From: Dictyostelium discoideum
Taxonomy: Eukaryota
Assembly (NCBI GenBank): GCA_000004695.1
Contig: CM000155.2
Location: 2,112,001 to 2,176,000, forward strand
Reading direction: 5' to 3'
DNA length: 64,000 bases
Positions 26,630 to 29,377 of this stretch are shown one piece after another; position 1 is the stretch's first letter, and the number at the start of each line of letters is the position of its first letter. The notes beneath the pieces are model-generated. The model saw nothing but the letters and a program-made list of their open reading frames with translations. It searched no databases and was not told where the DNA came from. Both the position numbers and the translations under genes were made by a program.

Positions 26630-27340
26630 TTATGATTGGTTAGTTTGAATAGATGCAGATTTTTGAATTTTAAATATATGTAATAAGAATGGGTAATTAT
26701 CGCATGGTGATTGAACAGTTTCCGGCCATTTTAAATGTAATTCTTCTTCCAAACAGTATTTAGCAAAGTTGTGGCATTTATTCTTTCTACCCCATGCGTT
26801 GTCTCCACCACATTTTTCTTTAATGAAGATATAAAATGATTCATGGAAACGGTTACGGATATTCATGTCTCTATCACAGTTATCGCCTTCAGCATATTCT
26901 TTAGTTTAAGTCAACAATGTTATACCCACTTTTGCAGTCTTAGTCAATTTTGTTGAATTAGAACTTCTTTCAGTTACTTGGAAACCAGTTTCAATAGAAT
27001 TCATTGCATCCTTCATTGCCAAATGAATTTCTAAACCTACTGGGTGATCATCATCATCAGATTCACCATTTTTATCTATAATAATAGAATAGTGACCAAC
27101 ATTTGTACCAACGTATTCCTCAAATGCCCCTTTTGTAAATTCTGGCACCAATTAATTGATCATTGAATTTGAGTAGACGTTCGAATTATATATTTTTTTA
27201 AAAATCATTAATTTCTATTTATATTATTATATTTAAATAATATATTTCTAAAAAAATATACTTACTAAATAAACATCAAGTACTCTTTCTTGGTTTACTT
27301 AAACCAATGACATTTCTTTTTCTTTTTCTTTAAAAAAATA
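26630..27340 (-). pseudogene. Tandem-array copy 1 of the MGN/Cys-rich family; inactivated by in-frame nonsense mutations
   Basis: Same two-exon layout as copies 2 and 3. Exon 1 carries TTG GTT TAA where intact copies have TTG GTT GAA (..SLVE..). Exon 2 carries TTG ACT TAA where intact copies have TTG ATT AAA (LIKTKEY). The acceptor region is also mutated. The ORF track shows the broken pieces 26906..27151 and 26630..26866. Confidence 0.6.
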
Positions 27341-27604
27341 ATTACCCATTTTTTTTTTTTATTTAAACTTTTTTTTATTATACAAATAATTAATAAAAAA
27401 AAAAAAAAAAAAAAAAAAAATTAAAAAAAAAAAAAAAACCTCATTCATTTTCAATATTACCATTTAATATTATTTAAATTTATTAAAATAAAATAAAATA
27501 AAATAATTACTATATAACATTTATTAATAAAAACAAAACCAATGATTTTTTCATTTATTTATTGTTGTAATTGATAAATTATAAAAAAATAATTTTTGAT
27601 TGAT

Positions 27605-28333
27605 TTATGATTGGTTAGTTTGAATAGAAGCAGATTTTTGAATTTTTAATATATCTAATAAGAATGGGTAATTATCGCATGGTGATTGAACAGTTTCCGG
27701 CCATTTTAAATGTAATTCTTCTTCCAAACAGTATTTAGCAAAGTTGTGGCAGTTATTCTTTCTACCCCATGCGTTGTCTCCACCACATATTTCTTTAATG
27801 AAGGTATAAAATGATTCATGGAAACGGTTACGGATATTAATGTCTCTATCACAGTCATCGCCTTCAACATATTCTTTAGTTTTAATCAACAATGCTTTAC
27901 CAACTTTTACAGTCTTAATCAATTTTGTTGAATTAGAACTTCTTTGGGTTACTTGGAAACCAGTTTCAATAGAATTCATTGCATCCTTCATTACCAAATG
28001 AATCTCTAAACCTACTGGGTGATCATCATCATCAGATTCGCCATTTTTATCTATAATAATAGAATAGTGACCTGCATTTGTACCGATGTATTCTTCAACT
28101 GTACCCTTTTTGTAAATTCTAGCACCTATTAATTCATCACTTGAGTTTGAGTAGACGTTCTATATTATATATATATATTTTATAAAACCATTAGTTTCTA
28201 TTTATATTATTAAAATTAAATAATATTTTTTTTAAAAAAATAAACATACTAAATAAACATCAAGTACTCTTTCTTGGTTTACTTCAACCAATGACATTTC
28301 TTTTTCTTTTTCTTTAAAAAAATAATTACCCAT
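27605..28333 (-). CDS. Tandem-array copy 2: novel about 213-aa protein, MGN N-terminus, C-terminal Cys-rich domain (function unknown)
   Basis: Exons 28250..28333 (MGNYFFKEKEKEMSLVEVNQERVLDVYL; donor GTATGT) and 27605..28159 (acceptor tatatag; NVYSNSSDELIGARIYKKGTVEEYIGTNAGHYSIIIDKNGESDDDDHPVGLEIHLVMKDAMNSIETGFQVTQRSSNSTKLIKTVKVGKALLIKTKEYVEGDDCDRDINIRNRFHESFYTFIKEICGGDNAWGRKNNCHNFAKYCLEEELHLKWPETVQSPCDNYPFLLDILKIQKSASIQTNQS). No family recognised. Confidence 0.6.
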
Positions 28334-28643
28334 TTTTTTTTTTTTTAATATATACTCCTTTTTTTTTTGTACAAATAAAAAAAAAAAAAAAAAAAAAAAC
28401 AAAAAAATAAAACAAAAATTAAAAAAAAAAAAAAAAAAGTAAAATATGTTTTACATATTTCTTTTTTAAATTTATAATATGAATCAACCATTGATAAAAA
28501 AAATATTTTACCACTTATAATTTTTTTTTAAAAAAAAAAAAAATTAAATAAAAACCCTTTTATTAATAAAAACAAAACCAATGATTTTTTTATTTATTTA
28601 TTGTTGTATATGATAAATTATAAAAAAATAATTTTTGATTGAT

Positions 28644-29377
28644 TTATGATGATTGGTTAGTTTGAATAGATGCAGATTTTTGAATTTTTAATGTATCTAA
28701 TAAGAATGGGTAATTATCGCATGGTGATTGAACAGTTTCCGGCCATTTTAAATGTAATTCTTCTTCCAAACAGTATTTAGCAAAGTTGTGGCAGTTATTC
28801 TTTCTACCCCATGAGTTGTCTCCACCACATATTTCTTTAATGAAGGTATAAAATGATTCATGGAAACGGTTACCGATAATAGCTTTTCTATCATAATCAT
28901 CGCCTTCAACATATTCTTTAGTTTTAATCAACAATGCTTTACCCACTTTAACAGTTCTAATTAATTTTGTTGAATTAGAACTTCTTTCAGATTCTTTGAA
29001 ACCAGTTTCAATAGAATTCATTGCATCCTTCATTACCAAATGAATTTCTAAACCTACTGGGTGATCATCATCGTCAGATTCGCCATTTCTATCTATAATA
29101 ATAGAATAGTGACCTGCATTTGTACCGATGTATTCTTCAACTGCACCCTTTTTGTAAATTCTTGCACCTATTAATTCATCACTTGAGTTTGAGTAGACGT
29201 TCTATATTATATATATATATATTTTATTAAATCATTAGTTTCTATTTATATTATTAAAATTAAATAATATTTTTTTAAAAAAAATAAACATACTAAATAA
29301 ACATCAAGTACTCTTTCTTGGTTTACTTCAACCAATGACATTTCTTTTTCTTTTTCTTTAAAAAAATAATTACCCAT
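28644..29377 (-). CDS. Tandem-array copy 3 of the same MGN/Cys-rich family
   Basis: Exons 29294..29377 and 28644..29201. Repeat unit about 1040 bp. About 93% identical to copy 2, including introns and flanks. Differences: E for Q at FKESERSS, DYDRKAIIGNRF for DCDRDINIRNRF, and one extra terminal Ser. Confidence 0.6.

Follow-up and report, generated by a model that had tools for sequence, protein, structure and literature searches.

Tandem triplication of a gene for a predicted permuted papain-fold protein in Dictyostelium discoideum

Permuted papain-fold families and the array proteins

The closest described systems belong to the NlpC/P60 cluster II class of circularly permuted papain folds, by which we mean the LRAT/PLAAT, PPPDE/DeSI and DUF6540-like families. 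PPPDE/DeSI proteins (peptidase C97, PF05903; DeSI-1, 2wp7 and 3ebq) have a His-Cys dyad as their active site. Two further cysteine hydrolases share the fold, namely CLN5, which is lumenal and glycosylated, and TseH, a secreted bacterial effector. The LRAT/PLAAT family (H-RAS-like suppressor, H-box/NC; PF04970), which includes the H-box/NC 2A proteins of picornaviruses, carries an NCEHF motif and a C-terminal transmembrane anchor. DUF6540 (PF20174) is a papain-like family and, in common with LRAT, has a Cys-His-His (CHH) triad (PMC10318531).

Within the window, a 64,000-nucleotide stretch of D. discoideum DNA, a gene with two exons is present three times, head to tail, on the minus strand at positions 26630-29377. 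A sequence-only reading had called the encoded protein novel and could not place it in any family. This view had to be abandoned: UniRef names both DDB_G0292844 and DDB_G0292962 'LRAT domain-containing protein', which implies a match to the PROSITE LRAT profile, and structural modelling indicates that the array proteins most likely comprise a highly divergent, circularly permuted papain-fold (LRAT/PPPDE-like) thiol-enzyme domain. Taken together, a recent lineage-specific triplication of a gene for such an enzyme, acting as a membrane-associated acyl-hydrolase or -transferase, is the best joint explanation and, on balance, a reasonably probable one.

Similarity to the described families is faint at the sequence level. 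The window proteins had no significant match to any Pfam model, PF05903 included, and none to PF04970 at E-values up to 10; a direct search of the PDB with the protein likewise gave nothing significant. Alignment of the family profile with hhalign gave a probability of 0.4% against PLAAT3 and of at most 2% against DeSI-1, used as a single sequence and as a 14-sequence profile (2% with the profile, which is shallow and made of vertebrate orthologues only). In each case only the NC motif was aligned, and the sole local alignment with DeSI-1 Cys108 and PLAAT3 Cys113 falls on NNCHNF. The best profile matches in the PDB, 8a2f and 7zua (E 0.09-0.3), are picornavirus 2A proteins, which belong to the H-box/NC type, and were also aligned on the NC motif. 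DUF6540 is the only Pfam model approached, by two remote family members over the N-terminal strands (20 bits, E ~9e-4); these scores lie below the gathering threshold of 27 bits, and the window proteins themselves had no match.

An AF2 model was built on the exon-2 translation (184 aa) rather than on the full spliced protein; an earlier AlphaFold run, which used close Dictyostelium homologues only, had reached a pLDDT of 39 and was discarded. In exon-2 numbering, Cys137 (Cys165 of the full-length protein) starts a helix at 137-148, and His31 and His54 go with strands 34-36 and 50-57, with a pLDDT of ~90 in these blocks. The helix bearing the presumed nucleophile thus lies C-terminal to the His-bearing beta-strands, as expected for the permuted papain fold, and the predicted structure resembles solved members of that fold. 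A Foldseek search against PDB and BFVD returned no matches.

The array family nevertheless departs from each described system. Compared with DeSI, it starts with Met-Gly2, a long insert separates its two His-bearing strands, and a second His, His82, is near-invariant, so that a CHH triad would be expected rather than a dyad. Compared with LRAT/PLAAT, its two His, at 59 and 82, are separated by 23 positions, NCHNF or NCQxF replaces NCEHF, and the C-terminus is polar, without the hydrophobic membrane anchor, a possible N-terminal lipid anchor being present instead. It differs from DUF6540 in being amoebozoan, and no sequence similarity to CLN5 or TseH was detected.

The wider family amounts to 35 HMM matches, which come from every dictyostelid group as well as from Arcella and metagenomes. 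A profile search of a word-indexed database added just two metagenome sequences, and no viral relatives were found when a viral collection was searched with the narrow family alignment. Full-text literature searches, one of them with the three gene identifiers, returned no biochemical or genetic data on any family member. These results define an Amoebozoa-wide family of ~170-220 aa with a Gly2 start and no current Pfam model, and two 'hypothetical proteins' gain a fold-level assignment with a predicted catalytic triad (His59/His82/Cys165).

Structure of the array and decay of copy 1

The bounds of the three coding sequences coincide exactly with 26630-29377, and the repeated units measure ~980-1045 bp, or ~1033-1046 bp with their flanks as in Table 1. 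Starts are spaced 975-984 bp apart between copies 1 and 2 and 1042-1044 bp between copies 2 and 3. The units have exact words of up to 96-120 nt in common, which excludes a chance origin of the repeat. The direct repeats and gene models bear out the earlier proposal that the gene was triplicated in tandem and that one copy is now a pseudogene. The identity between units 2 and 3 is 94.7% over aligned columns, or 92.6% with gaps counted, the latter agreeing with the 'about 93%' given before, with 95.9% identity between the two coding sequences and 96.7% between the introns. The unit of copy 1 is only 86-87% identical overall to the others. Copies 2 and 3 are indeed intact, but the lengths of 213 and 214 aa assigned to them were codon counts including the stop.

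Table 1. Positions in the window of the array, its genes, the predicted catalytic codons and a neighbouring relic.
Feature	Position	Strand	Description
Whole tandem array	26545..29594	-	Three units, each ~230 bp upstream, gene and ~85 bp downstream
Copy 3, DDB_G0292962 (Q54CN4)	28644..29377	-	Intact, 213 aa; gene model and exact-sequence look-up; ATG 29377; exon 1 29377-29294; intron 29293-29202 (GT..AG); exon 2 29201-28644 including stop
Copy 2, DDB_G0292844 (Q54CN5)	27605..28333	-	Intact, 212 aa; gene model and exact-sequence look-up; ATG 28333; exon 1 28333-28250; intron 28249-28160; exon 2 28159-27605 including stop
His59 codon, copy 2 (GHYSIIID)	28067..28069	-	Predicted general base; kept in at least 90% of family; strand start in AF2 model
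His82 codon, copy 2 (LEIHLV)	27998..28000	-	Predicted third Cys-His-His residue; near-invariant; within strand in AF2 model
Cys165 codon, copy 2 (NNCHNF)	27749..27751	-	Predicted nucleophile; helix N-terminus
Copy 1, annotated in AX4 as 145-aa gene DDB_G0292842	26630..27349	-	Pseudogene, from lesions relative to intact paralogues; ATG 27349; stop 26632-26630
BB_PF (beta-barrel pore-forming) gene relic, 160 bp	26163..26322	-	Between copy 1 and PALP gene

Copy 1 is a pseudogene: the frame set by its intact paralogues is disabled by five lesions. Two are the nonsense changes already recognised (GAA to TAA at 27301-27299 and AAA to TAA at 26908-26906). However, its structure is not otherwise the same, as had been supposed. 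The intron acceptor is lost (TAG to TCG, 27183-27182). There are also two deletions, one of 1 bp (between 27163 and 27162) and one of 2 bp (between 27127 and 27126), which together shift the reading frame for 12 codons; another TAA is found at 27154-27152. P0008 matches copy 1 only in stretches separated by lesions. With five lesions and ~6.5% divergence from copy 2, 'freshly' pseudogenised understates the decay, and the AX4 gene model DDB_G0292842 calls for re-annotation as a pseudogene.

The region is AT-rich with many homopolymers and thus difficult to assemble, and near-identical copies might arise if a contig of the reference genome had been duplicated or wrongly joined, a concern raised at the outset. 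Within the gene, however, the copies differ by 4-9%, whole units differ by ~5-14% over aligned columns, and the indels and lesions are copy-specific. Moreover, the independent assembly ACTFIT (GCA_054883475.1), which is 99.84% identical to the window over 18.4 kb, contains the same three copies with 0 mismatches over 3.3 kb, the array differing only in homopolymer lengths. An artefact is virtually negligible as an explanation.

Copy number, age of the duplication and neighbouring genes

Copy number varies among strains: against the three copies of ACTFIT, a single copy occupies the syntenic site between the DUF202 and PALP genes in ACTFIR, ACTFIW and ACTFIY, three divergent strains of the D. 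discoideum complex. Between copies, dS is 0.086 (copies 2 and 3), 0.098 (1 and 2) and 0.114 (1 and 3), about one third of that between the copies and the single-copy orthologues (0.25-0.30; dN/dS 0.13-0.37). Over the last 77 codons there is an apparent excess of synonymous conservation. The p-distances from copy 2 are 0.065 to copy 1 and 0.041 to copy 3, versus 0.079-0.082 to the strain loci L001 and L002. Between strains the array protein retains 83-90% amino acid identity, versus 95-100% for housekeeping neighbours. These comparisons support what had been suggested before, a lineage-specific and fairly recent amplification at a fast-evolving locus.

An array ancestral to the D. discoideum complex, from which the single-copy strains lost copies, would account for some ancestral bases shared by copy 1 and the orthologues, and gene conversion could in principle have lowered dS between paralogues. 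A tandem pair also exists in D. firmibasis. Its members, however, lie in a different neighbourhood and are only 5.4% diverged, so that by sequence comparison the pair is an independent duplication. In all three single-copy strains the intergenic spacers leave no room for relics (in L001 they measure 135-325 bp), and the low dS among copies (0.09-0.11) also argues against shared ancestry of the array, which we consider very unlikely.

Under the favoured scenario of recent triplication, a small cytosolic gene would have gone from one to three copies in the AX4/NC4-type lineage of D. discoideum, by unequal crossing-over or replication slippage with a unit of ~1 kb. Copy 1 would have split off first and since decayed; copies 2 and 3 would have diverged later and would still be under purifying selection. 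Recent tandem duplications in which one copy decays are ordinary genome features, and the consequences here are modest.

The array had also been placed immediately beside an aerolysin-like gene and its fragment. The relic does abut copy 1 (Table 1) and resembles the window at 31692-31757 and 32326-32399, but a DUF202 gene (30125-31225) stands between the array and the pore-forming BB_PF gene itself. Strain L003 has the relic (11132-11277), and L001 and L002 lack it; being common to L003, it is old and outside the recent triplication event.

Predicted catalysis, location and role

In a 34-sequence alignment, His59, Asp65, His82, Gly115, Trp159 and Asn164 are invariant or at least 90% conserved, and Cys165 is retained in most family members, with Ser in five remote ones. 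The motif order (HYSIIID, EIHL, NNCHNF) is the His-His-Cys order of the LRAT H-box (HWAxY...H) and NCEHF; spacing and residues differ. The array proteins are most likely membrane-associated thiol acyl-hydrolases or acyl-transferases, with catalysis, myristoyl anchor and substrate class all predicted. Cys165, at a helix N-terminus, would be deprotonated by His59, itself oriented by His82, and would attack an ester, thioester or amide bond to give a thioester acyl-enzyme. The enzyme would act as a hydrolase if the acyl group were then handed to water, and as an acyl-transferase if it went to an acceptor.

Proteins of the same LRAT/PPPDE-like fold could alternatively be non-enzymatic, serving as membrane-associated adaptors or regulators as suggested for LRATD1/LRATD2 (FAM84A/B). 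Low expression, the ease with which one copy was lost, the failure of sequence comparisons to link the proteins significantly with a catalytic family and the Ser replacements would all suit such a role. However, Ser is a conservative substitute for a Cys nucleophile, the conservation of both His and, in most members, of Cys165 extends from Dictyostelia to Arcella, the three residues occupy the expected catalytic-triad positions in the model, and dN/dS indicates constraint. We regard a non-enzymatic function as unlikely.

For the preferred thiol enzyme, the N-terminus suggests a location. The MGN start noted earlier proved to be a conserved family trait, with Gly2 in every protein of the D. discoideum group and an MG start in 24 of the 42 Met-initiated family members. 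Through N-myristoylation, this start might hold the enzyme at the cytosolic face of a membrane, in which case its likely substrates would be lipids, or proteins that carry a lipid or some other modification. N-myristoyltransferase prefers Ser, Thr, Ala, Gly, Cys or Asn at position 6. Several remote members fit MGxxxS/T (e.g. MGNKQT, MGNTRS, MGISIS), whereas the D. discoideum MGNYFF has Phe6, which is unfavourable. Neither a signal peptide nor a transmembrane segment was found, the maximum 19-aa Kyte-Doolittle window being 0.46 and the N-terminus not hydrophobic.

The description of the protein as Cys-rich does not stand, with 5 Cys in 212 aa. The five spaced Cys are found in copy 2 but not in copy 3, where the first is missing (Cys131 to Tyr). 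Neither Cys131 nor Cys189 is constant among close paralogues, Cys172 occurs in the D. discoideum group only, and Cys165 alone is kept across most of the wider family. A possibly secreted, disulphide-type protein outside any family, co-evolving with a pore-forming toxin-like neighbour at a locus of fast-evolving effectors, might be read from the five Cys in the C-terminal half, the BB_PF gene and relic, and the divergence between strains in excess of housekeeping neighbours. This is extremely unlikely: the fold and the source annotation point to a known superfamily, the DUF202 gene intervenes and the relic is older than the triplication. A secreted disulphide domain was rejected, signal peptide and conserved Cys framework both being absent.

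If the proteins are indeed myristoyl-anchored deacylases or phospholipases, they would offer a tractable Dictyostelium counterpart of PLAAT, DeSI and CLN5-type enzymes. A broader proposal, which we consider distinctly unlikely, is that the Gly2 proteins form a separate Amoebozoa-wide permuted papain branch of lipid-anchored thiol deacylases or phospholipases, subject to rapid birth and death and with a role in conflict. The suggested role would be to attack the membranes of vacuoles that contain bacteria, or to take part in self/non-self interactions when cells aggregate. Signs of turnover are the AX4 triplication with its pseudogene, the independent D. firmibasis pair and the fragmentary paralogues that AX4 has on chromosome 4. 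The array genes are not listed in one bacterial-response RNA-seq supplement. Transcripts of copy 2 occur at a low level and peak at 8-12 h of development (PMC6198379, supplementary file 5), a timing that would fit a conflict role.

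The repeat array and the decay of copy 1

In a window whose G+C content (~22%) is usual for Dictyostelium, three direct repeats were found at 26.5-29.6 kb, with start-to-start distances of 975-984 bp and 1042-1044 bp. Each unit carries one two-exon gene on the minus strand, and in all units an exon 1 of 84 nt, beginning ATGGGTAAT, precedes an 84-92-nt intron and a second exon of ~550 nt. Over aligned columns, units 2 and 3 share 94.7% identity (92.6% with gaps counted), with identities of 95.9% for the CDS and 96.7% for the intron of their genes. An exact-sequence look-up revealed that both intact genes are already annotated in D. 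discoideum AX4, copy 2 as DDB_G0292844 (UniProt Q54CN5) and copy 3 as DDB_G0292962 (UniProt Q54CN4), on a contig of 3.6 Mb that we take, from the DDB_G029 numbering, to be chromosome 6.

Features of the array and its surroundings (window positions unless a contig is named)
Feature	Position	Strand	Remarks
PLP-dependent enzyme (PALP)	24817-25953	plus	
BB_PF-like relic	26163-26322		~160 bp, between copy 1 and PALP; similar to 31692-31757 + 32326-32399
Copy 1	27349-26630	minus	five disabling changes
Copy 2	28333-27605	minus	open, 212 aa
Low-synonymous-divergence 3' third of CDS, copy 2	27605-27840		
Copy 3	29377-28644	minus	open, 213 aa
Low-synonymous-divergence 3' third of CDS, copy 3	28644-28880		
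DUF202 membrane protein	30125-31225	minus	
BB_PF (beta-barrel pore-forming) gene	~32.2-32.6 kb		beyond the DUF202 gene
D. firmibasis pair (L004, CM069769.1)	10001-10679 + 11399-12116		non-syntenic neighbourhood

Copy 1 shares 86-87% identity with the other units. Its lesions comprise a nonsense change at codon 17 (GAA to TAA, 27301-27299), loss of the intron acceptor (TAG to TCG, 27183-27182), a 1-bp and a 2-bp deletion which jointly put 12 codons out of frame (27162-27127), and a second nonsense change at codon 120 (AAA to TAA, 26908-26906). Repeat spacing, gene models and lesions thus confirm the tandem repeat and the pseudogene proposed by the sequence-only reading, though decay has gone further than the two nonsense changes which that reading described. 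The AX4 model DDB_G0292842 (P0008, 145 aa) consists of the pieces of copy 1 between the lesions, and is a gene model laid over a pseudogene; it should become a pseudogene in the annotation. The reference annotation of 26630-27349 obtains its 145-aa protein by bypassing the stop codons and the frameshifted stretch.

Age of the amplification and rate of evolution

As a check on an assembly artefact, the window was compared with an independent assembly, GCA_054883475.1 (locus tag prefix ACTFIT). The same three copies are present there, with 0 mismatches over 3.3 kb and differences only in homopolymer length; identity is 99.84% over 18.4 kb. Gene order is also conserved in three more divergent genomes labelled D. 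discoideum or cf. discoideum (ACTFIR, ACTFIW and ACTFIY), the flanks of which are ~90-93% identical to the window. Each of these contains one copy between the DUF202 and PALP genes, in intergenic spacers too short for hidden relics. At synonymous sites the AX4 copies are less diverged from one another (dS of 0.086 for copies 2 and 3, 0.098 for 1 and 2, and 0.114 for 1 and 3) than from the single-copy orthologues (0.25-0.30). Similarly, the p-distance of copy 2 is 0.065 to copy 1 and 0.041 to copy 3, against 0.079-0.082 to the orthologues of two divergent strains (L001 and L002). Therefore, the amplification occurred inside the AX4-type lineage, which bears out the earlier suggestion that it is recent and lineage-specific. 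Copy 1 was the first to split off, before copies 2 and 3 separated.

The BB_PF relic was also found in a third divergent strain (L003, 11132-11277), beside its single copy, and is absent from L001 and L002. This places the relic earlier than the triplication. The DUF202 protein is the most divergent of the region between strains (78-82% identity, with indels) and is largely acidic, Ser-rich low-complexity sequence.

In D. firmibasis, too, the family forms a tandem pair, whose members differ by 5.4% and which sits among other genes. This pair arose independently, and the family seems inclined to duplicate locally. On AX4 chromosome 4, two short paralogue models, DDB_G0285207 (P0048, 165 aa) and DDB_G0285195 (P0049, 101 aa), look like pieces of a subgroup of 216-aa paralogues, intact in wild strains (P0004-P0006), and may be further decayed copies.

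Copies 2 and 3 give a dN/dS ratio of 0.37, and comparisons of AX4 copies with orthologues give 0.13-0.34, indicating that the intact copies are under constraint. At the protein level the orthologues are 83-90% identical, compared with 95-100% for the PALP, TFIID and F-box/WD neighbours, so the gene changes more quickly than the housekeeping genes around it. Between AX4 copies and orthologues, synonymous differences are far rarer over the last ~77 codons than over the first 135; among the identical-residue codons of copy 2 and L001, 19/117 differ in the earlier part and 2/70 in the later (Fisher p = 0.004). Possible explanations are nucleotide-level selection, an overlapping element and chance.

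Family membership and predicted fold

Searches of Pfam and of PDB sequences with the protein gave no significant match, and a word-indexed search returned Dictyostelium proteins only. When a profile of these proteins was run in an exhaustive HMM search, 35 proteins scored at E<1e-3, from Polysphondylium, Heterostelium, Acytostelium, Cavenderia, Synstelium, D. purpureum, the testate amoeba Arcella intermedia and metagenomes. In a 34-sequence alignment (copy 2 numbering), His59, Asp65, Gly78, His82, Leu83, Gly115, Trp159 and Asn164 are invariant or nearly so. Of the five Cys, only Cys165 (NNCHNF) is retained across most of the wider family, with Ser in five members; Cys131 and Cys189 vary even between close paralogues (Tyr131 in copy 3) and Cys172 is limited to the D. 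discoideum group. With five Cys in 212 residues and neither a signal peptide nor a hydrophobic segment, the protein cannot count as a Cys-rich secreted domain.

AlphaFold2, supplied with the 34-sequence alignment, gave a model with a pLDDT of 78 (core >90) and a pTM of 0.74. Its elements run from a strand with His59 at its start, through a strand with His82 inside and two further strands, to a long helix and a helix starting at Cys165; this predicted order corresponds to that of a circularly permuted papain fold. Of the eight best fold matches, seven were papain-like NlpC/P60-type enzymes. Counting against such a fold, Foldseek against PDB and BFVD gave no match, and when the family profile was aligned by hhalign with DeSI-1, for which the profile was shallow, and PLAAT3 (both sequences 100% identical to PDB chains), the NC motif alone aligned, at insignificant probability. 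Weak leads of other kinds fit the fold. Against PDB sequences, the profile matched picornavirus 2A proteins best, with the NC motif aligned (E 0.09-0.3). Two remote members score 20 bits to DUF6540, short of the 27-bit cut-off; DUF6540 and LRAT are classified together as Cys-His-His papain-like families (PMC10318531). UniRef names both Q54CN5 and Q54CN4 'LRAT domain-containing protein'. Predicted structure, residue pattern and source annotation together lend good support to placing the protein in a known superfamily, that of the circularly permuted papain fold, with LRAT, PPPDE and DUF6540 as candidate families within it. The novel Cys-rich family first proposed is not upheld. What is new here is small: the pseudogene status of DDB_G0292842, the predicted triad and an Amoebozoa-wide, Gly2-initiated subfamily without a Pfam model.

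An LRAT-like module also lies C-terminally in two far larger proteins, Cavenderia fasciculata DFA_09713 (P0045, 670 aa; UniRef name: pseudouridine-synthase-domain protein) and a Synstelium protein of 1046 aa with many hydrophobic stretches (P0046). Genuine fusion or the merging of gene models could each explain this.

Putative catalysis, membrane association and expression

The enzyme biochemistry of PLAAT/LRAT and DeSI/CLN5 is established. By analogy, Cys165 would act as nucleophile and His59 as base, with His82 as the third, orienting residue, and catalysis would proceed via a thioester acyl-enzyme, then resolved by water or an acceptor. Candidate substrate classes are phospholipid, acyl-protein and isopeptide. 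Whereas PLAAT/LRAT enzymes possess a C-terminal anchor, the copies' proteins are without one. A Met-Gly start, which all proteins of the D. discoideum group and 24/42 Met-initiated members share, suggests N-myristoylation and membrane association, and several family members have the classic MGxxxS/T pattern. However, Phe at position 6 is unfavourable for N-myristoyltransferase, and its presence in the D. discoideum proteins makes this step uncertain. In published tables (PMC6198379 supplementary file 5), expression of DDB_G0292844 is low, with values of ~10 at 8 h and ~7 at 12 h during development and of 4.5 TPM for vegetative cells, although the near-identical copies may share reads.
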